Position numbers and translations under genes: made by a program. DNA of 64,000 nt from an uncultured Verrucomicrobiae bacterium. GTDB taxonomy: Bacteria > Verrucomicrobiota > Verrucomicrobiia > Limisphaerales > UBA11358. Positions within the stretch are counted from its first letter, which is position 1; the number at the start of each line of letters is the position of its first letter. This document shows, piece by piece, positions 25,388 through 41,680 of the stretch. The notes under the pieces are model-generated. The model ran no database searches and was not told where the DNA came from. It saw only the letters and a program-made list of their open reading frames with translations. Location: positions 175,664 to 239,663 of the forward strand of contig CAVQGB010000005.1 in NCBI GenBank assembly GCA_963711945.1. Reading direction: 5' to 3'.

Positions 25388-25497
25388 AGGCGGGAAATGG
25401 TAACGAGGATTTGAACTGAAGCAATCTTGTGGATGGGGGGATGGCGTGCCGAGTTCCAAAGGCATGGGCCGCCGACACGGCGCCCTTCCCCCAAGGT

Positions 25498-27060
25498 CTA
25501 TTGGCCGGCTGAATTGCCGGCGGGCGCGTTTGTGGGCGAAGGTAAAGATGCGGGAGCCATGATGTTCGTAGAAATAGCCGGCGCGTTGGTTTCCGCCGAC
25601 ATTCCAAACCGGGTGCGAATCACCGCGCGCGCGGCGAAGGGCAGTTCATTTTGTGGGTCGAGGAGCCGTTCCAACACCTCGCGCTTAAGATTGTCCATCG
25701 TTGGCAGCCGCGCGCGTTGGATGTTGTCAGTTCGCTTGATATAGCTGTCATAAATTTTTTGGGCGAGCAATTGGTAGCCGGCGGCGCGGTCGTCCTGCCC
25801 GTTGGCCAGATCCAGATACGCGTGCATCAACAACCCCTGAACACCCGATGTGACGCTCTCCTGCGAGCCTTCGCCAATGTCAATCTGCGTGACGGCAACG
25901 GCGTATTCGTCGAGCGTCAAATTTTTCGCGAACGAATTTGTCCGGCCATCAACGAGCGGCACGTCGGGATATTTTTCGCCGAGATATTTGAACCATCTGG
26001 CCGCCTCGGCCATGCGGTCGTTTTGGTAAAGGTATTTGACGGCATCCCGCAGAAAATTCCGATGCCCCAGCAGGATGCTGGCTTTTTGTCCCGGGTCCTG
26101 TTCCTCGTCATACATTTTCAGATAGGAATCGTTGGCCTTGGGAATCAAATCGAGGTCCGGCGCCAGTTCAATCATGCGCATGAACGGGTTGACGATCATG
26201 TGCCCGTGCCGGAACGCCTGCTGTTCTGTTTGGAAGATGCCGCGGCGGAGTTGCATCAAATCTATGTCGTTTGGCTTGATCTTGTCGGGATTATTCGATG
26301 CCTTTTCCAGGCCCAGCGAATACCAGTAAATCGCATGCGCCTCCGGCAGCCGCCAGTCGAAAGGACCATACTCTTCGTTCACTTTTTGCGCGAACACCGG
26401 ATCCAGCTTGTATTTCTCGCGCAGCACGAGCGCGTTCGTCCGTTCCCCGGCGGTCTGTGGATGAATCAAATCCTCAATATTCGTTCCATTCGGGCCAAAA
26501 AATGGCGTCATGTCCCGCACCCACACCTGCTTGTAATACAAATTCCCGTCGTCTGCATTTTGCCCGATCTTATGCTGGAAGAACTGGCCGAGCTGAAAAT
26601 AGATCAACGGGTCGTTTGGATTGTAGACCAGCCCCTTGTCGCGAAGCAGTTCGATGCCGTTGTTGACCCAGCGCCAGCGGTCGGCATAGACACCGGCCTC
26701 GTTTTCCTTGAACTTGATCGAGATGTTGTAGGCCATGTTCCACGACTGAAAGACCCAAACCACCGGGAGGTGCGGCTCAAGGTCGGTGATCCAGGAGGCG
26801 AGTTGCGCCGCCTCGAAATACTTGTCCTGTTGCTGCAAATCGTCCGCCCGTATCCAAAGGTAATTTGAAATCAGCCCGCGAAAACCGCCCAGCGCCACCG
26901 TGGTGAAGGCCAGCATCGGCGGCGCGTCCTGCAACGTCGAAGCGTGCGTCAGGCCAAGCCGGTCGCGATCGCGGTTCAACGATATTTGCATCCGGCCGGC
27001 GCCGAATACCAGCGCCGCGGCCAGCAGCAGCAGCAGAATTTTTTTGACGCGCGAATTCAT
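25498..27060 (-). CDS. Membrane-anchored/periplasmic hypothetical protein, translationally coupled to the ABC-2 permease
   Basis: 520 aa with N-terminal anchor MNSRVKKILLLLLAAALVFGAG. The start overlaps the upstream permease stop (27057-27060). No motif recognised. Confidence 0.6.
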   Translation of the reverse strand: MNSRVKKILLLLLAAALVFGAGRMQISLNRDRDRLGLTHASTLQDAPPMLAFTTVALGGFRGLISNYLWIRADDLQQQDKYFEAAQLASWITDLEPHLPVVWVFQSWNMAYNISIKFKENEAGVYADRWRWVNNGIELLRDKGLVYNPNDPLIYFQLGQFFQHKIGQNADDGNLYYKQVWVRDMTPFFGPNGTNIEDLIHPQTAGERTNALVLREKYKLDPVFAQKVNEEYGPFDWRLPEAHAIYWYSLGLEKASNNPDKIKPNDIDLMQLRRGIFQTEQQAFRHGHMIVNPFMRMIELAPDLDLIPKANDSYLKMYDEEQDPGQKASILLGHRNFLRDAVKYLYQNDRMAEAARWFKYLGEKYPDVPLVDGRTNSFAKNLTLDEYAVAVTQIDIGEGSQESVTSGVQGLLMHAYLDLANGQDDRAAGYQLLAQKIYDSYIKRTDNIQRARLPTMDNLKREVLERLLDPQNELPFAARAVIRTRFGMSAETNAPAISTNIMAPASLPSPTNAPAGNSAGQ

Positions 27061-28448
27061 TGCGTTCCCTGCGCCGTGGCCAGCTCACGCCGGCTGAACA
27101 ACGCAATGCCGATGAGGCTGATGATGCCGCCTGGCAGCAGGACGATCTGCGCAAACGCCAGGCCAAGCTCGCGCCAGGTGATGGCGCGACCGGTGCTCAA
27201 CGAATCCACCGGCGAAAAATTTTTCACGAGATCCACAACGGCCAGCAGCGCCTTGAACGCCGGAATCAGCACGATATCGGCTCCGGTATGTCCCACCTCT
27301 CCGGTCTCCTCGTTGCTTCCCGCGATGGAGCCGGTTCCCACCGCCTCCGCCAGCGTGCCGCTGGACAACACGACCACCAGCATTGCCAGCGAAAAAAACG
27401 CCGCCACGGGAAACGAGAGGAAGCTCGCCGCCGCCAGCCCCAGCGCCGCCAGCAGCGCCATCCAGCAAAAAACGATCCCCAGCCCGCGCGCGAAATTCAT
27501 CGCGAATCCGCCCTGCGGATACAGCACCTCGATGCCGTCGCCGATCGGGAACAGCATCACGGCGTTGTCGTTCACATTCCGGAACGCGATGGTCAACACG
27601 CCCTTGTCATCCAGCAAGTCCGCCGGGATTTGGAATTCATGGAACGTGTCCGGCGACAGGCTCATCGGCTCGCTCTCCCAAGGGCGCTTTTGTGGATCGC
27701 CGACCAGCCACAAGCCTTTGAGCGTTTCACCCGCGCCCTGCTGCGACGCGTTGAATTTGATCCTCAATTGCAGCGGCTTGCCGCGGAGAGATTCCTTTTC
27801 CGGCCCCAGATCAACCTCCCAAACGCGTATGTAGTCCGGCGGCACGAGCTGGTATGTCGCCTTGATCTGCTCGACGATCTGTCGTTTCACCTCCGGCAAA
27901 TCCGGCGACTTGGCCAGCTCCGGCTTGGATTTCAATTGTTCCCGCAATTTGCTTTCCGCCGCCGTGTCAATTTGCGCGATGGGATTTTGCGGCTTCGCCG
28001 AGCCGCGCGCGACGAGAATCTGTTCGCGCAAATTTTTCTGCTCGCCCGGCGGCAGCTTCGTGGCGCGCCATTGCAGCAGCCCGAAAACGCACGCGCCCGA
28101 CAGAGCCAGCAGCGCCGCATTCAGCGACAGTATGCCCAGCCACTTGCCCAGCCAGATTTGCCAGCGCGCGACGGGCTTGGTCACGAGGACTTGAATCTGA
28201 CACTCCTCGATGTCGCGCGCCAGCGTGCCGCAGGCAAGCCAGAGAGTGGAAAAACCGAGCAGCGCCGTGATGGCGCTCAACGTGTAGGTCAGCAAAATCT
28301 GCGTGAACCCGCGCGCCGTGCCGTCGTCCTTGATGACCAGCGGCAATCCCACCACCGCCGCCAGCAACAGCCCGGCCAGCACGACGAACAGCCGGAAACG
28401 GAACGCGGCCTTCCACGTCAATCCGGCAATGGCGAAAATCTTTTGCAT
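27057..28448 (-). CDS. ABC-2-type transporter permease-like membrane protein with a large extracytoplasmic loop
   Basis: 463 aa. It has N-terminal TM helices (MQKIFAIAGLTWKAAFRFRLFVVLAGLLLAAVVG), a ~170-aa hydrophilic insert, and C-terminal TM helices. It follows an ABC ATPase gene. Confidence 0.7.
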   Translation of the reverse strand: MQKIFAIAGLTWKAAFRFRLFVVLAGLLLAAVVGLPLVIKDDGTARGFTQILLTYTLSAITALLGFSTLWLACGTLARDIEECQIQVLVTKPVARWQIWLGKWLGILSLNAALLALSGACVFGLLQWRATKLPPGEQKNLREQILVARGSAKPQNPIAQIDTAAESKLREQLKSKPELAKSPDLPEVKRQIVEQIKATYQLVPPDYIRVWEVDLGPEKESLRGKPLQLRIKFNASQQGAGETLKGLWLVGDPQKRPWESEPMSLSPDTFHEFQIPADLLDDKGVLTIAFRNVNDNAVMLFPIGDGIEVLYPQGGFAMNFARGLGIVFCWMALLAALGLAAASFLSFPVAAFFSLAMLVVVLSSGTLAEAVGTGSIAGSNEETGEVGHTGADIVLIPAFKALLAVVDLVKNFSPVDSLSTGRAITWRELGLAFAQIVLLPGGIISLIGIALFSRRELATAQGTQ

Positions 28449-28496
28449 CAGGAAATCATCCTCGTCCTCGTTCTCGTCCTCGTCCTCGTCCTCGAA
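28449..28496 (-). repeat. Hexanucleotide tandem repeat (GAGGAC-like) filling the ATPase-permease intergenic gap
   Basis: The minus strand reads TTC GAG GAC GAG GAC GAG GAC GAG AAC GAG GAC GAG GAT GAT TTC CTG. That is 16 stop-free codons in the same frame as both flanking genes. Confidence 0.85.
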
Positions 28497-29717
28497 TTAT
28501 TTTTTCCCTCCCAGCAGCGACGACAATTTTTCATCCGCCTTTGACAAATCCGCCGGCTTTTCCGGCGCAGACGGCTTTACGGGCGATGGAGCCGGCGCGC
28601 CGACCCTGGCCATCGCATCCAGTTTGTTCACATCCACTTTCTGTGCCGCATCCGGCGCCGGCGCGGACGGCATGGCTTTGGCCGCCGGCTCCGCCTTTTG
28701 CGGCAATGAAAGTTTTTCCAGGACGTTTTCGGCCGGCGGACGTTCCTCCGCCGCGCCGGCGCGCAAATACGCCGCCACGCGCGCGCCGGATTGCGCGCCG
28801 CTGGTTTCCTGCGCCGCGCGCTTCGCCTTTTCCACCACGTCGAGAAAATAGCTTTCCAGATTCTGCGTCGGATTGTCCACGCGCACTTCGCCGGTCGAAA
28901 TATCCCTGCGGATGATTTCCAGGACTTTTTCCAGGGTTTCGCGCGGCAACACCGGCGTGGTGATGCGCAGCGTGTCCGGCTTGGCGAGCAGTTCCTGGAG
29001 CGTGCCCTCCGCCTGGATTTTGCCGCCGTAATAAATCAACACGCGGTTGCAAACGTCCTCGACATCCGATAGCAGGTGGCTGCTCAAAATCACCGTCTTG
29101 CCGCGCCGCGCGAGCGCGATGATCAAATCCTTCACCTCACGGCACCCGATGGGGTCGAGGCCGGCGGTCGGCTCGTCGAGAATGACGAGGTCGGGATCGT
29201 TGATGAGCGCCTGCGCCAGCCCGATGCGCCGCTGCATGCCCTTTGAAAATTCGCCGACGGCGCGCGTGTGGACCTGGCTCAAGCCGACCATTTCCAGCAG
29301 TTGCTCCGTGCGGTTTTTGCGCTCGCCTTTCGCGAGCTGGAAAAGGTTCCCGAAAAAATCCAGCGTCTCGCGCGAGTTCAGGTAGCGATACAAATACGAT
29401 TCCTCCGGCAGATAGCCGATGCGCGATTTCGTCTGGACGTGGCGCGGCGAATGGCCGAAGACCTCGATGTGGCCCTTCGTGGGGTTCAGCAGGCCGAGCA
29501 GCAGCTTGACGGTGGTGGATTTGCCGGAACCGTTCGGGCCGAGCAGGCCGAAGACCTCGCCGCGCCGGACCTCAAAATCCACGTTGTCCACCGCGCGCGC
29601 CTTCGGGCGGTTCCAGAAATCCTTGAACACCTTCGTCAAACCGCGGACGGAAACGACGACCTCGTCGGATTTACGATTTGCGATTTCCGATTGCGGAATT
29701 AATTCGGCGACGGGCAT
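28497..29717 (-). CDS. ABC transporter ATP-binding protein with an Ala/Pro-rich C-terminal extension
   Basis: Walker A LLGPNGSGKSTT, signature FSKGMQRRIGLA, Walker B LVILDEPTAGLD, and H-loop SSHLL. The start is chosen at MPVAELIPQ (29717), just after the upstream gene ends. Confidence 0.9.
   Translation of the reverse strand: MPVAELIPQSEIANRKSDEVVVSVRGLTKVFKDFWNRPKARAVDNVDFEVRRGEVFGLLGPNGSGKSTTVKLLLGLLNPTKGHIEVFGHSPRHVQTKSRIGYLPEESYLYRYLNSRETLDFFGNLFQLAKGERKNRTEQLLEMVGLSQVHTRAVGEFSKGMQRRIGLAQALINDPDLVILDEPTAGLDPIGCREVKDLIIALARRGKTVILSSHLLSDVEDVCNRVLIYYGGKIQAEGTLQELLAKPDTLRITTPVLPRETLEKVLEIIRRDISTGEVRVDNPTQNLESYFLDVVEKAKRAAQETSGAQSGARVAAYLRAGAAEERPPAENVLEKLSLPQKAEPAAKAMPSAPAPDAAQKVDVNKLDAMARVGAPAPSPVKPSAPEKPADLSKADEKLSSLLGGKK
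29668..29695. repeat. Heptanucleotide tandem repeat (GATTTNC, 4 units) inside the 5' end of the ABC ATPase gene
   Basis: GATTTAC GATTTGC GATTTCC GATTGCG. The minus strand, ...ATCGCAAATCGTAAATC, matches the repeat at 50387-50414. Confidence 0.75.
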
Positions 29718-29733
29718 AAAATGGCAGCGATAA

Positions 29734-29973
29734 TTATTTAGCTGAAGCCTTGCTTTCCTTTGCCTCGTATTCGGCGAGTTTTTTGAAAAGTCCTTCGTTG
29801 TCAGTGAAAACTTTGTCAACGGTCGTTTCAAATTCCTCGTCCATCGGAATGTAATGCGTTGATTCTCGACGATGGCGAACTTCAGCTTCGTATTCTTTGA
29901 TCAAAATAAACGGCTTTTCGATTTCTGTTGTTTCAAGTGACTGAATCAACTTGATAACTTCTTCGGCTTTCAT
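29734..29973 (-). CDS. Small acidic hypothetical protein (low GC), third gene of the toxin-antitoxin islet
   Basis: 79-aa ORF, MKAEEVIKLIQSLETTEIEK...; AT-rich codons. It lies 24 nt downstream of the antitoxin gene. Confidence 0.45.
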   Translation of the reverse strand: MKAEEVIKLIQSLETTEIEKPFILIKEYEAEVRHRRESTHYIPMDEEFETTVDKVFTDNEGLFKKLAEYEAKESKASAK

Positions 29974-29996
29974 GTGTTTACGCCTCTACCGCAGAA

Positions 29997-30233
29997 TTAC
30001 AACTCGTCTCCCGGCAATGGCCGGACGTTTGGCACTTGCGCCAGCGCGGCGTCATATTTTTTACGGCTCGCGCGACGGGCGCGCTTATCCAGGTCGTCCT
30101 CCGTAAGCCAGCCGGAAACTTTCTCCGCCACGGCGGCGCTGACAAACTGGTCAAACGACACTCCATCCTTGGCGGCCAGTTCACCGGCCTTCTTTTTGAT
30201 GGAGTCTGGCAGCTTGACGTTTATCGCGGTCAT
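29997..30233 (-). CDS. Putative antitoxin (RHH/HicB-like DNA-binding fold)
   Basis: MTAINVKLPDSIKKKAGELAAKDGVSFDQFVSAAVAEKVSG..., the beta-strand/helix/helix pattern of RHH antitoxins. There is a 4-nt overlap with the PIN gene. Confidence 0.65.
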   Translation of the reverse strand: MTAINVKLPDSIKKKAGELAAKDGVSFDQFVSAAVAEKVSGWLTEDDLDKRARRASRKKYDAALAQVPNVRPLPGDEL

Positions 30234-30658
30234 ATTGTTGTCTCCAATTTTCGCAGAAATCCAGCCGGGGTCAATACGCCGACACCAAACCGTTCCGCGC
30301 CGGCAAAATCGCGGACATTATGCGTCACGATGAAATTCGCGCGGGCGGCAACGGCCAACTCGAAAATCATGTCGTCGTCCGCGTCGCGCAAAAAGGGCCG
30401 CCATGAATAGGAGATTCTTGGGCGGTTTGCATTTGCGATGAGAAAGCCCAGCAAGTCGCCCAGGCGTTCGGTCTCAGGCCAGAACTTTTTCACATGGATC
30501 GCGGCGACCTCCTCATATTCAAACAACAGCGCAGGCGACAGGTTCAATTCCCAGCGCGGATCGCCGACCAGTTGCAAAATCCGAAACGAAGCGCCCTGCG
30601 ATGAACGAACCGCCGCGACGAGCACGCTCGTGTCGAGGACAATCTGAAACGGTTTCAT
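30230..30658 (-). CDS. PIN-domain toxin (VapC-like ribonuclease)
   Basis: MKPFQIVLDTSVLVAAV... (first acidic residue), ...EYEEV..., ...DADDDMIFELAVAARANFIVTHNVRDF. The spacing is typical of a PIN domain. Confidence 0.8.
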   Translation of the reverse strand: MKPFQIVLDTSVLVAAVRSSQGASFRILQLVGDPRWELNLSPALLFEYEEVAAIHVKKFWPETERLGDLLGFLIANANRPRISYSWRPFLRDADDDMIFELAVAARANFIVTHNVRDFAGAERFGVGVLTPAGFLRKLETTI

Positions 30659-30662
30659 TAAT

Positions 30663-32672
30663 TCACGCCAGCTTTGGCGTCAGTTCTCCAGTCGGCTTCG
30701 GATGCGAGTCGTGGTCGTGTTTGTCGGCGACAGCGTCGGGAAGGAAATGTTCCAGCTCTTCGCCCTTGCGCACGAGCCGCGCGCTATTGAAAATCACGAT
30801 GAGCGAGCCGACGTTGTGCAAAATCGCCGCCGGAATCGGGGTGAGATAGCCCAACGATGTGGCCGTCAAACCGACGATGATGAACAGCACGCCGAAGGCG
30901 AAATTCTGGTTGATGACCGAACGCGTGCCGCGCGAGAGCTTCACCAAAAACGGCAACCGTTGCAGGTCGTTGTTCATCAGCGCAATCGTGGCGGTGTGGA
31001 TGGCCACTTCGCTGCCCGCCGCGCCCATCGCGATGCCGAGGTCTCCCGCCGCCAGCGCCGGCGCGTCGTTCACGCCGTCGCCAACCACCGCCACGCGGTA
31101 GCCTTTGGCCTTCATGGCGCGCACGAACTCGACCTTGTTTTGCGGCAGGCAATCGCCCTTGGCCTCTTCGCAGCCGATTTCCATCGCGACGCGCGCGGCC
31201 ACCGCCTGCCGGTCGCCGGAAATCATCGCGATGCGCCGCACGCCCGCCAATTTCAAATCCGCCAAAGCTTCGCCGGCTCCGGCACGGGTCTTATCCTGCA
31301 AACCAATCCACCCAACGCAGCGATTCCCGTGCGCCACAAAAATCAGGCTCCAGCCCTCCGCCTCGCTCAAGTCCACGGACTTCTCGAATCCGGGGTCAAC
31401 GCCGTTGTCCTTGAGCCATTGCGCGCGGCCCACCAGGATTTTTGCGCCGTTGATCTGCGCCTTCACGCCGCGGCCGGCTGTTTCGGCAAAATCCTTCGGC
31501 TCGGCCAGCGGCACGCCGGCTTCGCCCGCGAGCGCCGCGAGGGCCTTGGCCGTCGGATGGTTGCTGTATTTTTCGGCGGACGCGGCGAGCAGCAGCAATT
31601 CGGCGGGCTTTGTTTCGCCGATGGGCGCGAGACGGCTGACGGCGAGCTGGCCGGTCGTGAGCGTGCCGGTCTTGTCGAAAACGAAGGCGTTGATCCTCGC
31701 GGCAAGTTCGATGTCGGCGACGTTCTTGATCAAAATACCCAGGCGCGCGGCGGCGGAGAGCGCCGCAACCATTGCCGTCGGCGTCGCGAGAATGAACGCA
31801 CAGGGGCAGGACACCACAAACACGGCGATGACGCGGTTCAAATCGTGGGTGAACGCCCAGACAAGCGCGCCGACGACCAGCACGAGCGGTGTGTAAAAGC
31901 TCATGTATTGGTCCACGATTTTCATGATGGGCAACTTGGTCTTTTCGGCGGCCAGAATGAGTTCGCGCACGCGGCCCAGCGTGGTGTCGGTGCCGGCGCG
32001 GCTGACTTTGATTTCCAGAACGCCGGTGAGATTTTGCGTTCCGGCGAAAACTTCGTCGCCGGCCTTCTTGTCGGCGGGCAGAGATTCGCCGGTGATGGTG
32101 GCCTGGTTGAACGAACCCTGGCCGCTGACGATGACGCCGTCCGCCGCGACATTGTCGCCGGGGCGGATGCGGATCACGTCGCCGATGGCGAGTTCGCTGG
32201 CGGCCACTTCCTCCTCGCCGCCGTCCTTCGTGATGCGCCGCGCCTTCGTCGGCGTGAGTTTGATGAGCGATTCAATCGAGGCCCGCGCGCCCTCGGCGGT
32301 GCGGCTTTCGATGATTTCGCCGGTGAGCATGAAAAAGGCGACGATGCCGGCGACCTTGTAATTGCCGGACGCGAACGCGGCGAGCACGGCAATGGCGACG
32401 AGTTCGTTGATGCTCAAGCGGCCGACGCGCAAATCCTTGATGGCCGTGACCACGATGGGATAAATGAGGATGAGCGCGCCGATGCACGCGCTGGCGCTGG
32501 ACACAACGCCGCCCTGTTCAAAAAACCAGTCCACCAGGTAGGCGTTGATGACAAGAACAACGCCGGCGATGGCCTGCCACATATGCACCACCGAATGTTC
32601 GTGGTCGTGGCCGCAGCCGCACTCCGGTCCGTGCTCATGCTCGTGATGGCTTAATAGTGATGTAACCTGCAT
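30663..32672 (-). CDS. Heavy-metal-translocating P1B-type ATPase (Zn/Cd/Co-type)
   Basis: His-rich N-terminus HHEHEHGPECGCGHDHEHS, TGES (ITGESLP), CPC (VSCPCAFILATP), DKTGTLT, GDGVNDAPALA, and a His-rich C-terminus DKHDHDSHPKP. Confidence 0.95.
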   Translation of the reverse strand: MQVTSLLSHHEHEHGPECGCGHDHEHSVVHMWQAIAGVVLVINAYLVDWFFEQGGVVSSASACIGALILIYPIVVTAIKDLRVGRLSINELVAIAVLAAFASGNYKVAGIVAFFMLTGEIIESRTAEGARASIESLIKLTPTKARRITKDGGEEEVAASELAIGDVIRIRPGDNVAADGVIVSGQGSFNQATITGESLPADKKAGDEVFAGTQNLTGVLEIKVSRAGTDTTLGRVRELILAAEKTKLPIMKIVDQYMSFYTPLVLVVGALVWAFTHDLNRVIAVFVVSCPCAFILATPTAMVAALSAAARLGILIKNVADIELAARINAFVFDKTGTLTTGQLAVSRLAPIGETKPAELLLLAASAEKYSNHPTAKALAALAGEAGVPLAEPKDFAETAGRGVKAQINGAKILVGRAQWLKDNGVDPGFEKSVDLSEAEGWSLIFVAHGNRCVGWIGLQDKTRAGAGEALADLKLAGVRRIAMISGDRQAVAARVAMEIGCEEAKGDCLPQNKVEFVRAMKAKGYRVAVVGDGVNDAPALAAGDLGIAMGAAGSEVAIHTATIALMNNDLQRLPFLVKLSRGTRSVINQNFAFGVLFIIVGLTATSLGYLTPIPAAILHNVGSLIVIFNSARLVRKGEELEHFLPDAVADKHDHDSHPKPTGELTPKLA

Positions 32673-32709
32673 GGAATTTTATGATTTACGATTCATGTCC
32701 ATTTTCATT

Positions 32710-33864
32710 TTACAGCCCCGCCGCGCCGTTGTTCGGCCCTGGCGGCTCACGATTCAACTGTAGCCTCAATTCCGTCGGCTCGCCACTGGCCGAAGTCGGA
32801 AGAAACGCCTTGAAAACCGCGTTGGTCATTACTTGACCCATCGTTTGAACCAACTGTTCCTGCTCAAACAGTCCCGGATTGATCAGGTAATTCGGCAGCA
32901 GGTCGCTGAACGCCTTCGCATCGGCCTGGACATTTTGGACGTAGCGGACGCTGGCGCTTTTCGCCCCGTTGATGATGGACGAGGCCTGCGCGTTGGCGCT
33001 GTTGGTGACCTGGTTTTCATAGGCGTGCGCACCGTAGAGGAATTTGGTCTGGTTTTGGCGCGCCGCGGCGACCTGTTCGAAAATGCCCTGCAACTGCCGC
33101 GGCGGAATGCTTTTTACATCACATTGCTGGATGGTAATGCCGAGACCCTGCTGGTCGGCCAGTTGAATGACGCGCTGCCACACGGCATCCTGAAATCCAT
33201 ACGGGTCGCTCGAAAGCACCGCGTCCACACCGAAATGCGCGGCGGTATAGAGCAGGGCGTTGTTCAGGGCATTTTGCACAATGTTGGAAACACCGGCCAG
33301 ACTCAATACCGGGTCGGTGCCGGCGGAAAAATGGAACACGGCGCTGATCGGATCGTTTATCTGATAATAAATCCTGGCGCGCGCGTGAATGATGTTGCGG
33401 TCCGCGGTAATCGCGTAGCCGTCCACGGCCGGATTCAACTGCCCAAGGCCGCGCGGCAGTTCGCCGTTCATATCATAGGCTGTCCATTGTGCCGGGGTCA
33501 TGTAAAACCAGCCGACTGTGGACTCGACGCTCTGGATTTCCTTGTATGGAATTTTCACCACCTCATCAATTGGATACGGAAACGACCAGTGCAATCCGGG
33601 GCCGAGCAGGGCCTGCTGTCCGGTTCCAACTGTCCTTCCGAAGCGCAGGACCACCGCCTTTTCCTGCGGTCCCACCTGAAAAACGCCCGAGACGAGAAAC
33701 ACGACCACCAACGCGACCATGACGAATTTGACAATCGAGAAGCTGCTGCGCAGCGCCTCGGCCAACGCCTGCGAACCGGAGTCGTCCGGCGTCATCGGCT
33801 CTCCGTGCCCGGGGTCGTGCGCGTGGGCGGAATGGTTGTGTTCGTGTTCGTCGCTCATGGTCAA
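32710..33864 (-). CDS. SPFH/band-7 protein (HflK-like) with a His-rich N-terminus
   Basis: MTMSDEHEHNHSAHAHDPGHGEP..., then one TM helix (FVMVALVVVFLVSGVF), then an SPFH domain (GPQEKAVVLRFGR...). The start overlaps the upstream stop. Confidence 0.8.
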   Translation of the reverse strand: MTMSDEHEHNHSAHAHDPGHGEPMTPDDSGSQALAEALRSSFSIVKFVMVALVVVFLVSGVFQVGPQEKAVVLRFGRTVGTGQQALLGPGLHWSFPYPIDEVVKIPYKEIQSVESTVGWFYMTPAQWTAYDMNGELPRGLGQLNPAVDGYAITADRNIIHARARIYYQINDPISAVFHFSAGTDPVLSLAGVSNIVQNALNNALLYTAAHFGVDAVLSSDPYGFQDAVWQRVIQLADQQGLGITIQQCDVKSIPPRQLQGIFEQVAAARQNQTKFLYGAHAYENQVTNSANAQASSIINGAKSASVRYVQNVQADAKAFSDLLPNYLINPGLFEQEQLVQTMGQVMTNAVFKAFLPTSASGEPTELRLQLNREPPGPNNGAAGL

Positions 33865-34763
33865 TGGCTTGGCGAATTGGTGGGCAGTCCCTGGAACAAA
33901 TCGAACGGCGGCGTGTGCTGGTCGAGAATCAAAGTCGCTTTCTGATTGAGCGCCGACTTCAGGGCGTCAATGCGAAGCAGGAAGACGGCCAGATCGGGAT
34001 TTTGTTGGAGGATGGGCAGCGTCCTGGCGGCTTCAGCAACGCCTTCGCCTTCAATCCGCGTGGCCTGGGCCTGGGCGTTGGCAAGGGTTTCGTTTGCCTG
34101 GCGGTCGGCATTGGCCTTGATCTTGATGGCATCGGCCAGGCCTTCATTATTCGCCTTGCTGATGAGGATGTTGCGTTCCGTCGTCATGCGATCAAACACC
34201 GCCTGGGTGACACTCTCCGGCAGCTCGATCCGTTTCAGGCCCAGAAATTCTATGTGAATGCCGTAGCTGTTGGTTCGCAACTCGTCCTCGACCATCTGTT
34301 CAATTTCATGCTGAATCACGTCGAACTCCAGCAGCTTCGGGTCCGCATTCACGAAATCAGAGAGTTGATGTTTGCTCACCACGGTCATGTTGGCGCTGCG
34401 CAACAGGCTTTCGAGCTGGTTTTGGGCGGTGGCCACCGAGCCGCCTTTAAAGCTTTTCAGAAAATCCGGAGCGGATGAAATCCGCCAGCCGACATAGACG
34501 CTGGTGATGAGGTTGATTTGATCCGCCGTGAGGGTTTCGCTGAATTTGTCTTCGAAGTTCTGGATGCGTTGGTCAAATTTATAAACTTGCTGGATCGGCC
34601 AAGGCCAGCGCAGATGCAGTCCGGGATCGCAGGTTCCCGCCACCTTGCCGAAGGTCGTGACGACGGCCTCCTCGGACTGGCGGACCTGAAAGGTGAACAG
34701 CAGCAGCGCGAAAATAACGGCCAGCACCGCCGCGGTAATGAGGGTGATTAAATTCCGTTTCAT
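33861..34763 (-). CDS. SPFH/band-7 protein (HflC-like)
   Basis: N-terminal anchor MKRNLITLITAAVLAVIFALLLF, SPFH core ...VRQSEEAVVTTFGK...GIHIEFLGLKRIELPESV..., and a coiled-coil tail. It is translationally coupled on both sides. Confidence 0.85.
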   Translation of the reverse strand: MKRNLITLITAAVLAVIFALLLFTFQVRQSEEAVVTTFGKVAGTCDPGLHLRWPWPIQQVYKFDQRIQNFEDKFSETLTADQINLITSVYVGWRISSAPDFLKSFKGGSVATAQNQLESLLRSANMTVVSKHQLSDFVNADPKLLEFDVIQHEIEQMVEDELRTNSYGIHIEFLGLKRIELPESVTQAVFDRMTTERNILISKANNEGLADAIKIKANADRQANETLANAQAQATRIEGEGVAEAARTLPILQQNPDLAVFLLRIDALKSALNQKATLILDQHTPPFDLFQGLPTNSPSH

Positions 34764-36685
34764 GGCGAATTGGTGGGATTGGGATTCAAGTTCAAAAGGT
34801 CGGCGCGAATGGTGTCCTCGAGATTGAATATAACCACGTCGTGCGTGTTCGTCACGAGCAGGATGTATTTGCGCGCGTTGGCGGTGGCGCCGGGAAACAT
34901 CTGGAAATACGCGCGCTGTTTATAGACCGACGGCGCGGCGTTGTAGGCCGCAATCTGGTTGGTGAACAGCGCCGCGCGCGACCATGCGGAGACTTCCGTG
35001 TTCGTCCGCGACGCCTCGGCCTGGCTCACGTCGGCAAACGCCTGCGCGCCGGCCAGGGCGTTGGTCTGGATGGCGTCGGCCACCGCGTTGTTGGTCTCCG
35101 CAATCTGATGCTGGGCGGCGGCGACGACTTGTTCGTAATCACCCGCCACCTTTGCCGGCGGGTGGATATCCTGAACGCCGACAAAAAGGATTTTCACGCC
35201 GAGCCCGCGCTGGTTGGCGTCTTCCTGGATCCGGGTTTTGAGTTGTTGGGCGGCCTCGGCGCGCAGTTGCGAGAGGACTGCGTTCAAATCCACGCCCGAC
35301 AGGTATTGCACCAGGTCGCGCGTGGCAAGATCCTGGAGCAGGTTGCTCTGGCCGGCGTTTTTGTAGGCCCAATCCACCACGTTGGTGATTTGAAACTGCA
35401 CCGGCAGGCTCACGTCAATCAAACCCACCGCGCCCACCTTGTTGATTTCAGCGGGGCTGCCACCCGTGCCGGCGGCGGCGGCGGCCAGGTTGTTGGTGAT
35501 GGTCGCCGGTTCCACATTGCCGACGAGAAAGTTGACCTCCTTGATGCCGGCGTGTGGCGTGCTCCATAAAATCGTCTGGCTCATCTGGCTTTGCGGATCG
35601 GGCGTGAATCCGACGTCAAACGTCTGAATCTGGCCGGTGCGGTAGCGATAAACATGATCCACCGGCCACGGCCAGATCAAGTGCCCGCCGGGATTCAAAA
35701 CCGATCGCTCGGGGTTCTTCAAGTCCACTTGTCCGAAACGTTCCAAGACGCCCTGTTCGCCCGGTTCAATGAACACCACGCAGGTGGACAACAGCAACAC
35801 CACCAGTTGCGCCAGTAACAGCACGGGCAGGCTCTTGCGCATCAACTGGAAAAACCACGTCTCCGAAACCTTGAAGCCAAACTGGTAATCGAGCGTTTGC
35901 GCCGCCGTCGTGACCAAGCTCTCGGGCTGGGCAAGCAGCCCCGCAATCCGGCTGTCGTAAAGCGGTCGCGCCACCTTGCCCTTCAGGCGCGGACGGTAGA
36001 TTTCCAGCAGCAGCGTGACGAGCGTTTCCGCCGCCATCACGCCGAGCAGCACGCAAAAGGCGCGTGCAATCCAGAAATCGGCCCCGGAAAATCCGGTCCT
36101 GACGCCGGCGATGCCCGCCGCCGTGGCAGCGCACACATAAGCGCCCGCCAGCAAATAACTCGCGCCGGGCCGCAGCAGCCGGTGGTCTTCCAGCCGCGCA
36201 ATGGTCACTGAAAACCGGCCCACCAAGAACAGCAGCAGCGCGAAAATGGCGAAGAGCGACAGCGACGCCATCGCCCGGTCCGGCACGATGCCCGCCATCA
36301 ACTTGCCGGTCCAGCGCCAGAGCAGCCACGCGCCGCCGGACTCAAGGACGAACAGCAGCACGGCGAAGCCCGGCACAAAAAATTTCTCAAACTGCTCCCT
36401 GGCGCGGCGCGCCGGGAACACATCCGATTCCTTCGACTCAAACAGCGCCGCTCCGCCGCGGGACCGGGCAAATTCAGCGACCTCCAGCTTTTCCAGCCGC
36501 TCATTTTCCTCCAGCCGCATCTGGAACCAGCTTGCAAACGCCACGAGCACGCCGAGGCCGAGAAAGACCGAGGCGGCCTGGCCGGCCAGCGTATTGGCAT
36601 AAACGGTGGCGGCAAACGCCGCGATGAACACCGCCGCCGCCGCGACCAGATTGACCAGACCGTTTTGTTGGACGTTGCGTTCCAT
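34760..36685 (-). CDS. Polytopic membrane protein fused to a C-terminal SPFH-like domain
   Basis: 641 aa. The first ~300 aa have about 8 hydrophobic helices. Then comes VFIEPGEQGVLERFGQ... (SPFH start) and a coiled-coil-like Ala/Gln-rich tail. Confidence 0.7.
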   Translation of the reverse strand: MERNVQQNGLVNLVAAAAVFIAAFAATVYANTLAGQAASVFLGLGVLVAFASWFQMRLEENERLEKLEVAEFARSRGGAALFESKESDVFPARRAREQFEKFFVPGFAVLLFVLESGGAWLLWRWTGKLMAGIVPDRAMASLSLFAIFALLLFLVGRFSVTIARLEDHRLLRPGASYLLAGAYVCAATAAGIAGVRTGFSGADFWIARAFCVLLGVMAAETLVTLLLEIYRPRLKGKVARPLYDSRIAGLLAQPESLVTTAAQTLDYQFGFKVSETWFFQLMRKSLPVLLLAQLVVLLLSTCVVFIEPGEQGVLERFGQVDLKNPERSVLNPGGHLIWPWPVDHVYRYRTGQIQTFDVGFTPDPQSQMSQTILWSTPHAGIKEVNFLVGNVEPATITNNLAAAAAGTGGSPAEINKVGAVGLIDVSLPVQFQITNVVDWAYKNAGQSNLLQDLATRDLVQYLSGVDLNAVLSQLRAEAAQQLKTRIQEDANQRGLGVKILFVGVQDIHPPAKVAGDYEQVVAAAQHQIAETNNAVADAIQTNALAGAQAFADVSQAEASRTNTEVSAWSRAALFTNQIAAYNAAPSVYKQRAYFQMFPGATANARKYILLVTNTHDVVIFNLEDTIRADLLNLNPNPTNSP

Positions 36686-36693
36686 CGAAATTA

Positions 36694-36721
36694 AAAATGA
36701 AAGATGAAAGATGAAAAACGA
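36694..36721. repeat. Heptanucleotide tandem repeat (AAGATGA, ~4 units) just upstream of the 641-aa SPFH gene
   Basis: AAAATGA AAGATGA AAGATGA AAAACGA is read directly. It lies 9 nt from the start codon at 36685. Confidence 0.75.
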
Positions 36722-36784
36722 AGAAACGGCGCGCGCGGCGGAGCGTTCAACATTTTAATCTTCGATTTTGGATTTTGCATTGAT

Positions 36785-37723
36785 TCAACCCAATTCCCGT
36801 TCCTCAAAAAGCGCCGTGCCGGCGGCCAGCGCCGCGCCCGCGTAACAAACCGCGTAGGCGAACGCCTTGCCGACATAATCCCACTGAAACGTGTTCTTGC
36901 CCGATTCAATGGCGTCGGCAAGCCAGAAAAGCTGCCAGTTTGGAATGACAGTGTAAAGCGTCGAAGCCCACCACGGCCCGCCGCCCCCGATCGTCCCGCC
37001 CGCCTTCGAGTAAAAGTAATCCGACATCAGTCCGACCAGAAAAAATGCCGTGCAGACCGCCAGCGTCGGTATCGTGTCCAGCCGCGTCGAACACGCCAGC
37101 GCCAGCGCCGCCAGAACCAGCAGCGCAAACAGGATCAAAATGCCCGCCGGCAGGAGGTTCCAGTTCACGTGCGCCACCGCGTTTATGCTTTCCCTCTGCT
37201 CGGTGAACCGGAAAATGACGAATGCCGCGAGCGTCGTGAAAAAAAGCATCGCAAAAACCGCGTCGCTCACGAATGGACGGCGCAGGAAGAAATTGCTGAA
37301 ACCCGCCAGCCCGTAGGCCAGCGCGACGCCCCCCGCGAAAATGCCCACGGCGGCCATGTCGGTGCTGCCATAGGCGTCGAACGCCATGCGGCTGGCCAGC
37401 AGCACGCCGAGCATGTTGACGTAAGTCAGCACCACCAGCGCCGCGGCCACGCCGGCGTATTTCGCCAGCAAAAACTGCGCGCGTCCGACCGGCTTGGATA
37501 ACACGGCCAGCGCCGTGCCGGTGCGGATTTCCCGCGCGAGCGACGCCGACGCGCTCAAGACCGCGCCGAACAACCCGGACAGCAGCATCACCGCCAGCAC
37601 GGAATTTTCCACCAGCTTCGGCTCGTCGCCGAACGCGAAATAATACGGCACGGCAAGAAAGAGCTCGAACAGCACGGAGCCGGTCAGCAGCAGCAGAAAA
37701 ACCGGCTGCCGGATCAATTCCAT
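36785..37723 (-). CDS. ABC-2-like permease / polytopic membrane protein (no cognate ATPase adjacent)
   Basis: The internal ATG at 37723 gives MELIRQPVFLLLLTGSVLFELFLAV...AREIRTGTALAVLSKPVGRAQFLLAKYAG... (ABC-2 permease-like signature). There are 6-7 helices. Confidence 0.6.
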   Translation of the reverse strand: MELIRQPVFLLLLTGSVLFELFLAVPYYFAFGDEPKLVENSVLAVMLLSGLFGAVLSASASLAREIRTGTALAVLSKPVGRAQFLLAKYAGVAAALVVLTYVNMLGVLLASRMAFDAYGSTDMAAVGIFAGGVALAYGLAGFSNFFLRRPFVSDAVFAMLFFTTLAAFVIFRFTEQRESINAVAHVNWNLLPAGILILFALLVLAALALACSTRLDTIPTLAVCTAFFLVGLMSDYFYSKAGGTIGGGGPWWASTLYTVIPNWQLFWLADAIESGKNTFQWDYVGKAFAYAVCYAGAALAAGTALFEERELG

Positions 37724-37892
37724 GAACGCGTTGACCGCAATGTTGCCAAAATTGTCGCATGAACAGGCCGGATAGTTTAGGCGCCGGAATAAAAATTGCC
37801 AGCCGTTATTCCTTCCAGGCGTCAACGTCCAAATGGATTTCCCATGAATTGAGCGTGGGAACGGCGATTTCGTTCAAAATCAGGCTGAAATT

Positions 37893-38498
37893 TCAACGGT
37901 CCGGGGTGCCTTTGATTTTGGCCCAAAGATTCTGATGCCACCTCTGAAGCACCTTTACAAAGGCTGAATCCAGTCGCGAACTGATGATCTCGACAAACCA
38001 ATAACCTCTTTTCACGGCCAGCCACAGTGCAGCCATGAAGATGACAATGAAAATCGTTTGGTTTTGCCAGCCGTCCAGCTTCCATTGATGCTTCCAAAAC
38101 CAGATGGGATGGCGGAAAAGCGGCTCGGAATAACAAATCGGCCACAAATCGCCCGGCGCCGGTCCGCGCGAACCGACGAGATCGCACAGCAGATGCAAAT
38201 GAAAGGTGAGCAAGCAAAGCAGCAACACTCGCTGTCGCTGTTCGGCATAAAGCGCAAACAAAATTGAAACCACAACTGCTGCCGGCCAGCCGTGCAGCAG
38301 CAGGTGATGATACGTCTGATAATAATGGAACGTGCATTCCTTGCCTGAAATCCACGAACCGACGACATCAGGAATGATGCCGAGGCCGTCGGCATCGGGC
38401 AAAACTCCGGCCAACGTCACCAGCTTGCGATCCCGCGGATTGTTGGTTGTTGCCGACGCCACCAGCCAGCTTCCAATCAAATGGACTACTGGCGACAT
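37893..38498 (-). CDS. Membrane-bound metal-dependent hydrolase (YdjM/DUF457-like)
   Basis: MSPVVHLIGSWLVA...HHLLLHGW...LTFHLHLLCDLVG. His-rich TM helices are typical of this family. Confidence 0.65.
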   Translation of the reverse strand: MSPVVHLIGSWLVASATTNNPRDRKLVTLAGVLPDADGLGIIPDVVGSWISGKECTFHYYQTYHHLLLHGWPAAVVVSILFALYAEQRQRVLLLCLLTFHLHLLCDLVGSRGPAPGDLWPICYSEPLFRHPIWFWKHQWKLDGWQNQTIFIVIFMAALWLAVKRGYWFVEIISSRLDSAFVKVLQRWHQNLWAKIKGTPDR

Positions 38499-38737
38499 GG
38501 CTTACTTCATCGCCCGGGCGATGCTGTTCCACCAGGCGTCGTGCAAGTTCGGTGAGCGGAGCGGAGAATTCGCCTGCTGGCGGTTTTCACCGTCAGCTTG
38601 TCGCCGCCGACCTTGCCGATTTGCACCGCCGGCACGCCCATCAGTTTGGCGCGTTCCACGACTTTCACCGCGTCGAGCGGCTTTGCAACTGATGACGATG
38701 CGCGATTGCGTTTCGCCGAACAGCAGCGCATCCAATC

Positions 38738-38805
38738 GGTGGGGCGAGGCTCCTGACGAGCCGTCGTCCGCCTGCCCATCGGATCGCGAGGACGCTCGCC
38801 CCACC
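38738..38805. repeat. Palindromic repeat (GGTGGGGCGAGGCT...GACGCTCGCCCCACC family) inside purL
   Basis: GGTGGGGCGAGGCTCCTGACGAGCCGTCGTCCGCCTGCCCATCGGATCGCGAGGACGCTCGCCCCACC. Its termini are identical to the copy at 10428-10476. It is translated as SVGRASSRSDGQADDGSSGASPHR. Confidence 0.8.
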
Positions 38806-40457
38806 GATGACAAATCAATCGTCGCGCCAATCAGCCGCGGCGTCTCGCGGGCGACGAGCTGGCTGATGCAGCTTTCGGCCAGGCACACCGCCAGGCCGCC
38901 TTCGCTGCAATCATGCGCGCTTTTCACCACAGCCGGATTGAATCAAGCCGAGCAGCGTCGTGTGCAAGGTTCTTCGCCTGTTTCCAGATCGCAGCGCGGC
39001 GGCGTGCCGGTTTTCTTTCCGTGAATCGCCTGCAAATACGCCGAGCCGCCCAGACCGAGAATCGGGTCGGCTTTGTCCACGATTTCGCCGAGCAAAATGA
39101 TCGCGTCGCCCTCGTCCTTGAACCATTGCGTCGTGACGTGCTCCGGTTTTTCAATCAGGCCCACCACCACCACCGTCGGCGTCGGGTCAATCGGGCCGTT
39201 CGGGCTTTGGTTGTAGAGCGAGCAATTGCCGCCGGTGACCGGCGCGTTGAACGCCCGGCAAGCCTCGGCCAGTCCGCGCACGGATTCCTTGATTTGCCAG
39301 AACAACTCCGGCTTCATCGGGCTGGGCATGTTGAGATTGTCGGTCGTGCCCAGCGGCACCGCGCCGGAACAGGCCAGGTTGCGGCACGCCTCGGCCACCA
39401 CAATCTTCGCGCCTTCGTAGGGATCGAGATAAACGTAAGTGCCGTTGCCGTCCGACGTGAGGGCGATGAGTTTTTCGGGCGTGGATTTTGCCGCCGGCTA
39501 ATTCGGGCAGCGAATCGGTCTTGATGCGCAGCACCGCCGCGTCGCTGCCGGGACAAACCACCGAGCCGTCGCGCACCATGTGGTCGTATTGGCGGTAAAC
39601 CCAGTTCTTCGACGCGATGGTCGGCCACGCGAGCAGCTTCTTCAAATCGCCAGCGGCGATCTTGCGTGTCGGCGATTCCATCCAGCCGGAACGCGCGGAC
39701 TTCCTTCAAATACTCCGGCTCGCTGCGCCTCGCGCTGGTAAATCGGCGATTCGTCGGCAATTTTCTTCGCCGGAATGTCGGCGACAATTTTTCCGCCGTG
39801 GCGCACGACCATCCGGCCCGTGTCGGTGACGAATGCCGATTTCCGACCACGGCAAATCCCATTTGTCGAAAATCCGCTTCACTTCCTCCTCGCGGCCTTT
39901 GTGGACGATGATGAGCATGCGCTCCTGCGATTCGCTCAGCATGATTTCGTAGCTGGTCATGTTCGGCGCGCGCTGCGGCACCTTGTCCAGTTCGATTTCG
40001 ATGCCCGTGCCGGCGCGCGCGGCCGTTTCGCAGGTGGAGCAGGTCAAGCCCGCCGCGCCCATGTCCTGAATGCCCGCGACCGCGCCGGTGGCGAGCAATT
40101 CGAGGCAGGCTTCGCAGACGAGTTTTTCCATGAACGGATCGCCCACCTGCACCGCGCCGCGCTGTTGCTCGGCGGATTCCTCGGTCAAATCCTGCGACGC
40201 AAACGCCGCGCCCGCCAGGCCGTCGCGACCCGTGGCCGGGCCGACGTAGAAAACCGGATTGCCGATGCCCTTGGCCGCGCCGCGCGCGATTTGTTCGTGG
40301 CGCAGCACGCCGAGGCAGAAGGCGTTCACGAGCGGATTGCCTTCGTAGGATTTGTCGAAATAAACCTCGCCCGCGATGGTCGGGATGCCGAAGCAATTGC
40401 CGTAATGCGCGATGCCCGCCACGACGCCGGCAAACAGGCGGCGGTTGTTCTGAATCT

Positions 40458-40591
40458 GGGGAGCACACGCGCCCTCGCGTGTGGCCGACAACGCCCCGTC
40501 GTCGGCACAATGCCGCCACCGCGCGTTGCGTCTCGCGCGTGGGCGCGCTCGGCGCGGTTGATGAGGCGTCAACCGCCACAGCCGGGTCGGC
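40458..40591. repeat. ~134-nt palindromic element inside purL (related to the 10896-11086 element)
   Basis: GGGGAGCACACGCGCCCTCGCGTG...GGCTGTGCTCCCC. Compare GGGAGCGCACGCGCCTCGCGTG in the intergenic element. It lies between the conserved PurL segments SLRFGPI and [13 protein letters not shown], and the reading frame changes across it. Confidence 0.7.
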
Positions 40592-41059
40592 TGTGCTCCC
40601 CATTCCATTTCCGCATTCCGTGATCGGCCCAAACCGCAGCGAGTTCACCGCGCAAATCGGCCGCGCGCCCATCGTGAAAATGTCGCGCACGATGCCGCCG
40701 ACGCCGGTGGCCGCGCCTTGAAACGGCTCGACCGCGCTGGGATGATTGTGCGACTCGATCTTGAACGCGATGGCCATGCCGTCGCCGATGTCAATGATGC
40801 CGGCGTTTTCCTCGCCCGCGCCGACGAGGATTTTCGGCGACTTGGTGGGAAAGGTCTTGAGCAGCGGGCGCGTGTTTTTGTAGCTGCAATGCTCGCTCCA
40901 CATGACGGAGAAAATGCCCAGCTCGGTGTAGCTCGGCGTGCGGCCGAGGACTTCCTTGACATGGGTGTATTCCTCCGGCGTGAGGTTGTGCTTCGCGACG
41001 AGTTCGGGGGTGATGGCGGGTTCGGTCATGGCAAAACTTTTGGTTCTGAGTGAAATGAT

Positions 41060-41680
41060 TTACGCCCAGAAGGGAACGTATTCCGTAAATTTCTTGGACT
41101 TATTATCTGGGTTGGCTGGCTTGATTCTCTTAAGAGAAATCGCCTCCTGAATCAGATTAGAAACCATTGAGCGTTGCTTTTCGGGCATTTTCAATCGTTC
41201 TCGAAGTGATTTGTTTGTCATTGCACTGTGCAACATCAATGTTCCAATCTCCTGTCGTGACGCTTGCCGTGTTGTGCCACCAGAACGGATAAAGGCAGTC
41301 TCCAAACTTTTCCCACGAATATGAACCGGCTTGACCGAAGCTTCTGGAACATGAACGAACAACAGCGAAACGGATTCATAATCTTCCACTGCGTGATCCA
41401 GTGAAACAGATGGCTCAACGCCCTGCCGCCCAATATTCGCAAGTTGATTGATGGTTGTCTGAACTACTTCTTCTGATATTGCGTGCGGAATCCCTGAAGC
41501 ATCGACGCCATTTACCAAAAAGCCTCCACCGGGATAATTGGCGAGCGCAGACAAATGTTCTGCCAGCCGATTCTTGTCAGGCGACAATGCGGCCTTCCAG
41601 TCCAGTTCGTTCAACTCGTGCTTCGGTTGTTCGAGGCTGGCCTTCAGCAAACCCATCGCTCGGCTTACCCAGTTCTTCAT
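41060..41680 (-). CDS. AlbA_2/Schlafen-like putative DNA-binding protein (short form), low-GC insertion between purQ and purL
   Basis: LEQPKHELNELDWKAALSPDKNRLAEHLSALANYPGGGFLVNGVD...LLFVHVPEA...PVHIRG resembles the AlbA_2 domain. The C-terminal SLRERLKMPEKQRSMVSNLIQEAISLKRIK...YVPFWA is wHTH-like. The flanks are AT-rich. Confidence 0.5.
   Translation of the reverse strand: MKNWVSRAMGLLKASLEQPKHELNELDWKAALSPDKNRLAEHLSALANYPGGGFLVNGVDASGIPHAISEEVVQTTINQLANIGRQGVEPSVSLDHAVEDYESVSLLFVHVPEASVKPVHIRGKSLETAFIRSGGTTRQASRQEIGTLMLHSAMTNKSLRERLKMPEKQRSMVSNLIQEAISLKRIKPANPDNKSKKFTEYVPFWA

Follow-up and report, generated by a model that had tools for sequence, protein, structure and literature searches.

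A stretch of 64,000 nucleotides from an uncultured Verrucomicrobiae bacterium (GenBank assembly GCA_963711945.1, contig CAVQGB010000005.1, positions 175,664 to 239,663), hereafter the window, carries on its minus strand a series of genes in which three SPFH-domain proteins are followed by a P1B-type heavy-metal ATPase. A first-pass annotation had read five of these genes as a scaffold dedicated to a metal-efflux pump. We find that the block is a conserved eight-gene membrane module of the Planctomycetes-Verrucomicrobia-Chlamydiae (PVC) superphylum and not a five-gene unit. The best overall explanation, to which we give an even chance of being right, is that in this module an SPFH cage serves both the pump and an ABC-2 transporter. 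The synteny of the block agrees with the earlier idea of a scaffold next to a pump, but the unit comprises eight genes, with a full ABC-2 transporter among them, and a housekeeping role fits better than an 'efflux' island dedicated to detoxification.

All eight genes lie on the minus strand, and the first five stand in the order and at the positions that had been annotated: an ABC-2-like polytopic membrane protein of 312 aa (perm1, 36785..37723), a 641-aa protein that joins an N-terminal membrane domain to an SPFH domain (34760..36685), an HflC-like SPFH protein of 300 aa (33861..34763), an HflK-like SPFH protein (32710..33858 with an ATG start, 382 aa, or 32710..33864 with a TTG start, 384 aa) and the P1B-type ATPase of 669 aa (30663..32672). 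Past an inserted PIN-domain gene they are followed by an ABC transporter ATPase (28497..29717 from the probable ATG start, the maximal open reading frame (ORF) extending to 29831), a second ABC-2-type permease of 463 aa (perm2, 27057..28448) and, as the last gene of the block, a 520-aa protein without a family (25498..27060), so that perm1 is not the permease lacking an ATPase partner that it had been taken for. The translational coupling proposed for the three SPFH genes is real for the first junction, an ATGA overlap between the 641-aa and HflC-like genes. At the second, the TGA of the HflC-like gene and the ATG of the HflK-like gene are 2 nt apart and overlap only if the TTG start is used, and it is the ATG (MSDEHEH...) that most orthologues use. 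The HflK-like stop is separated from the P1B start by 37 nt, the genes for perm2 and the 520-aa protein overlap by 4 nt, and in close relatives the median gaps along the block are 80, -4, 2, 55, 42, 73 and -4 nt.

The evidence for a unit of eight genes comes above all from distant relatives. An exhaustive search of cluster representatives with the 641-aa protein returned 743 clusters at 50% identity (E<=1e-30), many of them full-length at 28-40% identity, and a profile made from these clusters matches proteins labelled Omnitrophica, Brocadiae, Phycisphaerae, Sedimentisphaerales, Lentisphaerae and Verrucomicrobia. The full eight-gene order is present in four contigs with wholly different neighbours (L085-L088), where all eight proteins are reciprocally similar to those of the window, at 52-58% identity for the pump, 48-56% for the ABC ATPase and about 30% for the SPFH proteins and the permeases, with the 520-aa protein reaching 30-45% in its N-terminal third. 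In L081, a Lentisphaerae contig, the order is the same as far as the ABC ATPase gene, after which perm2 is missing and a gene for a 258-aa TPR-like protein comes next. A scan of metagenomes added 80 further loci, 31-39% identical to the first sequence of the profile; where there was room on the contig, the P1B gene follows the HflK-like gene in 40/40 and the ABC ATPase gene follows the P1B gene in 28/32. Throughout the 72 distant loci in which perm1 was found it lies directly upstream of the SPFH trio, co-directionally in 24 and divergently in 48. The flanks of distant loci are unrelated to those of the window, purL lying upstream in 1/28 and MiaB downstream in 0/15.

Closer to the window, the 641-aa profile has relatives in at least 467 species-level genomes, and the best 80 of these, at 60-77% identity, formed our close set; nearly all of the 80 are labelled Verrucomicrobia, subdivision 3 or Limisphaerales, and the few metagenome-assembled genome records with other names are probably mis-binned. 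Gene order was read by tblastn of the window proteins and counted only where the contig extends far enough. One block order is found throughout, with the P1B gene after the HflK-like gene in 66/66 loci, the ABC ATPase gene after the P1B gene in 60/62 and perm1 upstream of the 641-aa gene in 74/74. Conservation of the gene neighbourhood, proposed with the five-gene reading as a check on it, therefore holds far beyond five genes and beyond the clade of the window.

As had been annotated, the block encodes three consecutive SPFH proteins: Pfam Band_7 matches the 641-aa protein (E 1.8e-17), the HflC-like protein (2.4e-28) and the HflK-like protein (1.1e-18). The HflC-like protein scores 117.1 bits against its nearest NCBIfam model, hflC (TIGR01932), under the equivalog cut-off of 134.4, and the HflK-like and 641-aa proteins score 125.8 and 83.4 bits against the hflK model TIGR01933, under its cut-off of 159.4. 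Hydropathy gives the HflC-like protein one N-terminal transmembrane (TM) helix, and the HflK-like protein consists of a cytoplasmic N-tail, one TM helix (residues 42-60) and the SPFH domain. For the 641-aa protein, hydropathy and the AlphaFold model agree on seven TM helices, six plus the SPFH anchor, and not the eight that had been counted. From its N-terminus it consists of a membrane domain of six helices, a cytoplasmic loop that is conserved (LLLEIYRPR...LDYQFGFKVSETW), TM7, an SPFH domain of the HflK-like kind and a long helix of coiled-coil type, which spans residues 511-601 of the model (predicted local distance difference test score, pLDDT, 81.7). The trio thus has the SPFH domain after a single TM helix and the long coiled-coil helix as in HflK/HflC, and the top Foldseek matches of the 641-aa model are cage subunits of HflK/C, erlin, stomatin, prohibitin and QmcA. 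Glu220 in TM6 of the 641-aa protein is invariant. Foldseek also matched this model weakly to cation diffusion facilitator (CDF) zinc transporters (YiiP, ZnT3, ZnT1 and SLC30A10; E 0.013-0.1; TM-score about 0.56 on the target), presumably over the N-terminal six-helix bundle (residues 1-230). We rejected a CDF identity because the Asp/His metal site of TM2/TM5 is absent among the conserved residues, and the resemblance is probably a generic similarity of six-helix bundles.

The E. coli HflK/HflC-FtsH cage (PDB 7vhp, 7wi3, 9cz2), to which the trio has its best sequence and fold matches, likewise pairs K-type with C-type SPFH proteins from adjacent, translationally coupled genes; in each, a TM helix at the N-terminus leads into an SPFH domain in the periplasm and then into a long coiled-coil helix. 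The trio differs from E. coli HflK/HflC in having three subunits, one with an additional six-helix membrane domain and one with a His-rich tail, and in that its genes are tied to those of a P1B pump and an ABC-2 transporter and not to hflX or hfq. These likenesses, which include FtsH-bound cages among the best structure matches, would be expected if the HflC-like and HflK-like proteins were ordinary modulators of an FtsH encoded elsewhere, the transporters being FtsH substrates or long-standing neighbours and the scaffold dedicated to neither; we think this unlikely. No ftsH gene occurs in the block or among the genes listed for the distant loci, but adjacency is not expected, and since in E. 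coli, too, ftsH does not adjoin hflKC, its absence nearby, to which the first-pass annotation had drawn attention, is uninformative and leaves this alternative intact. It is harder to reconcile with the scores of all three proteins, which fall under the HflK/HflC equivalog cut-offs, and with the third, seven-TM SPFH subunit and the ABC-2-like protein that always accompany the pair. Furthermore, the adjacency of the pump survives a full turnover of the flanks across phyla, which would be unexpected for unrelated neighbours.

The absence of NfeD, pointed out together with that of FtsH, stands: there was no NfeD match in the ten window proteins scanned or in the Pfam lists of nine distant loci. 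SPFH-NfeD operons (QmcA-YbbJ, PDB 8z5g; stomatin-NfeD) resemble the block in that an SPFH gene is fixed beside that of a membrane partner, and QmcA is among the fold matches, but the partners in the block are transporters. A 640-aa protein with AAA and AAA_lid_6 domains and no protease domain, hence not FtsH, is encoded at 20036-21958 on the plus strand, 3.5 kb past the block.

The pump is the most conserved gene of the block, with identities of 78-88% in close loci, 52-58% in distant ones and 51-88% overall. It matches the Pfam families E1-E2_ATPase and Hydrolase, has eight TM helices and no HMA domain, and its intact catalytic motifs (DKTGT at 333, TGES at 194, GDGVND at 531, SNHP at 370), the CPC at 289 in TM4 and a TIGR01525 score of 531 bits (cut-off 346) identify it as a P1B-type heavy-metal ATPase in the general sense. 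Its designation as a Zn/Cd-type pump is backed by TIGR01512 ('cadmium family', 450 bits vs a cut-off of 313), a match at the level of the subfamily only, and is not backed by the residues that mark subgroup P1B-2. In Arguello's classification a P1B-2 pump is recognised by three features together: CPC in TM4, DxG in TM6 and, in TM5, a Lys that is conserved. The CPC is present, but TM5 (NQNFAFGVLFIIVGL) has no Lys and TM6 (LHNVGS...FNSARL) no DxG, and the pump scores far under the cut-offs of the ZntA models (344 vs 1240 and 385 vs 1005). It thus shares with the P1B-2 pump ZntA (PDB 4umv) the CPC of TM4 and neither of the other two features, of which the K693-D714 pair of P1B-2 is supported by PMC8880997.

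The signature of P1B-4, SPC in TM4 and HEGxT in TM6 (PMC8880997), is not found in full either: TM4 has CPC in 62/67 orthologues, including all five distant ones, and of HEGxT only the His is conserved, the next residue being N, V, S, L or F. TM5-6 of the pump nonetheless aligns best to the P1B-4 pump sCoaT (PDB 7qbz), HEGST over HNVGS, so that the TM6 His coincides with H657; the TM6 His of sCoaT is an essential built-in counter-ion (PMC8880997). The two pumps have in common eight TM helices, the full set of P-type catalytic motifs, the lack of an HMA domain and a His-rich N-tail, and are set apart by CPC instead of SPC and by the missing Glu after the TM6 His. Against the PDB as a whole the pump is about equidistant from CopA, sCoaT and ZntA (E 1e-94 to 1e-87). 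A parallel exists in CtpC of Mycobacterium tuberculosis, which pumps zinc, combines CPC with a His-Asn in TM6 and likewise falls outside canonical P1B-2 (PMC13460109). By these motifs the pump is P1B-4-like, with CPC in TM4 and a conserved TM6 His, and not a canonical Zn/Cd P1B-2 ATPase, and this combination of CPC with a lone conserved TM6 His would put it outside the well-characterised P1B subgroups. Given the CPC, the sCoaT-like TM6 His and the CtpC parallel, the substrate is likely to be a divalent transition metal, most likely a Zn/Co/Cd-like one. RNA elements give no clue to the metal, as an Rfam scan of 25000-39000 found no riboswitch, including no NiCo/czcD or Mn element.

At its C-terminus (30693-30731, minus strand) the pump of the window has a second His-rich patch, ADKHDHDSHPKP, shared with a subset of relatives (e.g. 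L019, L024, L043, L051, L070 and L076); most relatives have EPEEPPRRATGQ in its place. Ten genomes (L005, L024, L029, L036, L043, L052, L053, L061, L068 and L078) conserve between the HflK-like and pump genes an ORF of about 144 aa, hydrophobic, probably with several TM helices and without a Pfam family, which is not found in the window.

The matching His-rich termini that had suggested a link between scaffold and pump are both real in the window. The HflK-like tail (MSDEHEHNHSAHAHDPGHGEP, 33796..33858) has 6 His in residues 1-20 and the His/Cys-rich tail of the ATPase (MQVTSLLSHHEHEHGPECGCGHDHEHS, 32592..32672) has 7 in 20 residues, so that 6-7 His fall within the first 20-27 residues vs 1-3% His overall; no other protein of the block carries such a patch. 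Among close-clade orthologues about 70 of 75 have the HflK-like tail (MSDEHEHHDH...), and the pump tail, MQVTSLLSHHEHEH..CGCGHDHEHS, hardly varies. Acidity and a conserved juxtamembrane motif, D/E-A-G-S-Q-A-L-A-E-A-L-R-S-S-F, characterise the HflK-like tail more generally. Both tails are predicted to be cytoplasmic, since the single TM helices are N-in, the 641-aa protein has seven TM helices and the positive loops lie inside.

The genes after the pump complete an ABC-2 (type V) exporter, an ABC_tran ATPase (E 1.7e-33) with permeases of ABC-2 families, in which perm1 is a candidate subunit. perm1 matches PF12730 (ABC2_membrane_4) at the borderline, with 27.2 bits vs a cut-off of 27, has weaker matches to ABC2_membrane_5, _2 and _3, and is 28-57% identical to its orthologues in L082-L088. 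perm2 matches PF12679 weakly, a family that its orthologues in L085 and L087 match as well; it is 28-33% identical to distant orthologues over the full length and has a loop of about 190 residues (123-314) between hydrophobic segments. The ATPase belongs to the ABC-2/ABCA class and has a low-complexity C-terminal extension, and its homology to distant orthologues begins at about residue 55 of the long ORF. Its nearest solved structures are ABCA proteins and NosF, the latter being the closest bacterial one (E 1e-48). PADLOC left seven of the eight block proteins without a match and gave the ABC ATPase generic ABC-ATPase matches only. The AlphaFold model of the 520-aa protein (pLDDT 81.6) shows an N-terminal membrane anchor and an all-alpha TPR-like solenoid, for which Foldseek returned generic TPR matches only; the protein has no Pfam or NCBIfam family, and every one of its 3484 homologues is annotated 'hypothetical'. 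Pfam likewise found no family in the last proteins of the distant loci, and sequence searches of the PDB found nothing for either permease or for the 520-aa protein. In the spacer between perm1 and the 641-aa gene, very stable hairpins of GTTGAAGC/GCTTCAAC repeats were seen in some relatives (L021:8375-8466, z -9.4; L041:9920-10000, z -6.1); a regulatory hairpin as a conserved feature of this spacer was rejected, the window (z 0.29) being no better than shuffled sequence.

These genes invite a comparison with NosDFY (PDB 7o0y), which delivers copper to N2O reductase and is an ABC-2-type system with periplasmic partners in metal handling. The module might accordingly be centred on the ABC-2 transporter and be a machine for trafficking or export towards the periplasm, to which the pump would supply a metal that the TPR-like protein and the permease loop would pass on or use, with the SPFH proteins as organisers. 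Two ABC-2 permeases and an anchored, probably periplasmic, solenoid are as position-conserved as the pump, no gene accompanies the SPFH genes more constantly than perm1, which is there even in a Brocadiae contig that lacks the pump, and the high conservation and core-genome position of the pump would suit housekeeping metallation. We judge this reading improbable all the same. The similarity to NosF is generic for ABC-2-type ATPases and holds at the level of that class, two dissimilar permeases replace the NosY dimer, and Pfam and NCBIfam revealed no NosD, NosL, NosZ or other recognisable metallochaperone or metalloenzyme in the block. Moreover, the junction between the P1B and ABC genes is the least tight of the block, and there are loci that keep the pump without the ABC genes.

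In the explanation that we prefer, one SPFH cage serves both the pump and the ABC-2 transporter. Its subunits would be the HflC-like protein and the two HflK-like paralogues, assembled at the inner membrane into a ring or cage of the HflK/C type that lies on the periplasmic side and fences a membrane patch in which the two transporters sit. The cage may stabilise, assemble or quality-control them, as HflK/C does for FtsH and PacL for the Ctp pumps. The pump would export a divalent transition metal captured by its cytoplasmic His/Cys tail, and in some lineages, that of the window included, the His-rich tail of the HflK-like protein would capture metal likewise, as an optional element. The task of the ABC-2 transporter and the TPR-like protein may be to deal with the metal once it is released, or with a metal-dependent substrate in the periplasm. 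A physical association of the SPFH proteins with the pump is a plausible prediction. The module looks like core housekeeping and not like an acquired resistance island: housekeeping fits better than a detoxification island because the pump is a highly conserved part of the core genome and there is neither a riboswitch nor, by Pfam scan of the window's block, a metal-sensing regulator.

The closest described functional analogue is the mycobacterial 'effluxosomes' of PacL and CtpC, CtpG or CtpV (Boudehen 2022, PMC9374683; PMC13460109), in which a scaffold gene likewise lies directly upstream of that for a P1B ATPase. In PacL a His-rich motif that binds metal on the cytoplasmic side is optional, and some paralogues can do without it; PacL/CtpC foci are independent of the mycobacterial flotillin (PMC9374683; PMC13460109). 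The likeness would be functional only: PacL proteins are small DUF1490 proteins with Glu/Ala repeats and not SPFH proteins, Pfam and NCBIfam found DUF1490 in no block protein, and the PacL-Ctp operons, which belong to a different phylum, have no ABC transporter or TPR protein. The first-pass annotation had not recognised the block as a described system. No description of it was found in searches of the literature on SPFH proteins with P-type ATPases, ABC transporters, Verrucomicrobia or Planctomycetes, so that this holds for the block itself, but a scaffolded P1B platform as such has its analogue in PacL-Ctp.

The clients of bacterial SPFH cages are usually inferred from weak co-localisation data, and a block that in several PVC phyla has kept three SPFH genes beside those of a metal pump and an ABC transporter gives a concrete, testable set. 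The arrangement suggests that scaffold-organised P1B platforms, so far represented only by mycobacterial PacL, arose independently with an SPFH scaffold. The seven-TM SPFH protein and the 520-aa solenoid protein belong to large families without specific functional annotation. A bolder form of the same idea, which we put forward tentatively and hold to be rather doubtful, is a PVC-wide machine in which a three-subunit HflK/C-type cage encloses dedicated clients, a distinct CPC/His P1B pump and a heteromeric ABC-2 transporter with its TPR partner, and so forms a periplasm-facing compartment for the handling of a transition metal. If true, this would be the first bacterial SPFH cage with operon-fixed transporter clients, rather than a protease or an NfeD protein.

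Several observations weigh against a cage that serves both transporters as one unit. The housekeeping flanks of the close clade, purQ-purL on one side and MiaB on the other, show synteny too, and close-clade synteny alone is therefore weak proof of function; we rejected it as sole proof and relied on the distant loci in addition. Among 86 complete loci the pairwise identity matrices of five of the genes correlate with r 0.93-0.98, which fits inheritance as one unit, but a few deep clades push these values up, and any core genes passed on vertically would correlate too. Four distant loci have no ABC genes after the pump, and the Brocadiae contig has perm1, the gene for the 641-aa protein and one Band_7 gene, followed by a gene for a non-ribosomal peptide synthetase, and no pump. 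The gap between the P1B and ABC genes exceeds 300 nt in 22/61 close loci, mostly filled by toxin-antitoxin-like genes, and this junction may be an operon boundary; a scan for promoters and terminators gave counts at chance level and lends no support to co-transcription. As for the tails, there is no conserved pairing. Of the distant pump orthologues, 44/45 carry at least 3 His within residues 1-45, whereas an HflK-like tail with that many His is seen in only 11/56, spread across lineages; the His-richness of one tail is uncorrelated with that of the other. The His-rich segment of the HflK-like protein, whose presence in orthologues had also been named as a check, bears this check out in the close clade but is absent from most distant lineages.

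That the block is an accessory island for heavy-metal resistance, or that unrelated genes came to lie side by side by chance, is close to untenable: resistance determinants do typically have a P1B pump and tails rich in His, and toxin-antitoxin genes do lie inside the block, but its GC content resembles that of its surroundings, regulator and riboswitch are missing from the window's block, the toxin-antitoxin genes differ among loci and are clearly secondary insertions, and the synteny, with vertical, concordant inheritance and invariant order in at least 467 species genomes, contradicts it.

The insertions in the window lie between the P1B and ABC ATPase genes. A gene for a PIN-domain toxin (30230..30658, minus strand, as are the two that follow) starts 4 nt past the stop of the pump and is present in only 1/80 related loci, and is therefore an insertion. 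Its stop codon is overlapped by an ORF of 78 aa that looks like an antitoxin (29997..30233), and next comes an ORF of 79 aa (29734..29973), whose relatives occupy this gap in five other loci; neither small ORF has a Pfam family. From a reading of the sequences, the genes that fill this gap in relatives resemble toxin-antitoxin pairs (Doc/Phd-like, DUF4160/DUF2442-like). The junction is a recurrent landing site for small genes of this kind.

Upstream of the block, the gene for a YdjM-family membrane protein (37893-38498, minus strand) between purL and the block and that for a Schlafen/AlbA_2-domain protein (41060-41680, minus strand) between purQ and purL are absent from all 80 related loci and are therefore local insertions. 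The purL gene itself (FGAM synthase II, 38502-41029, minus strand) is split over at least three frames in comparison with an intact orthologue: residues 16-160, 185-517 and 408-861 lie in three frames, with further small shifts near the C-terminus, and the gene is either a pseudogene or affected by clustered assembly indels. No such frame splits are seen in the twelve kilobases of the block.

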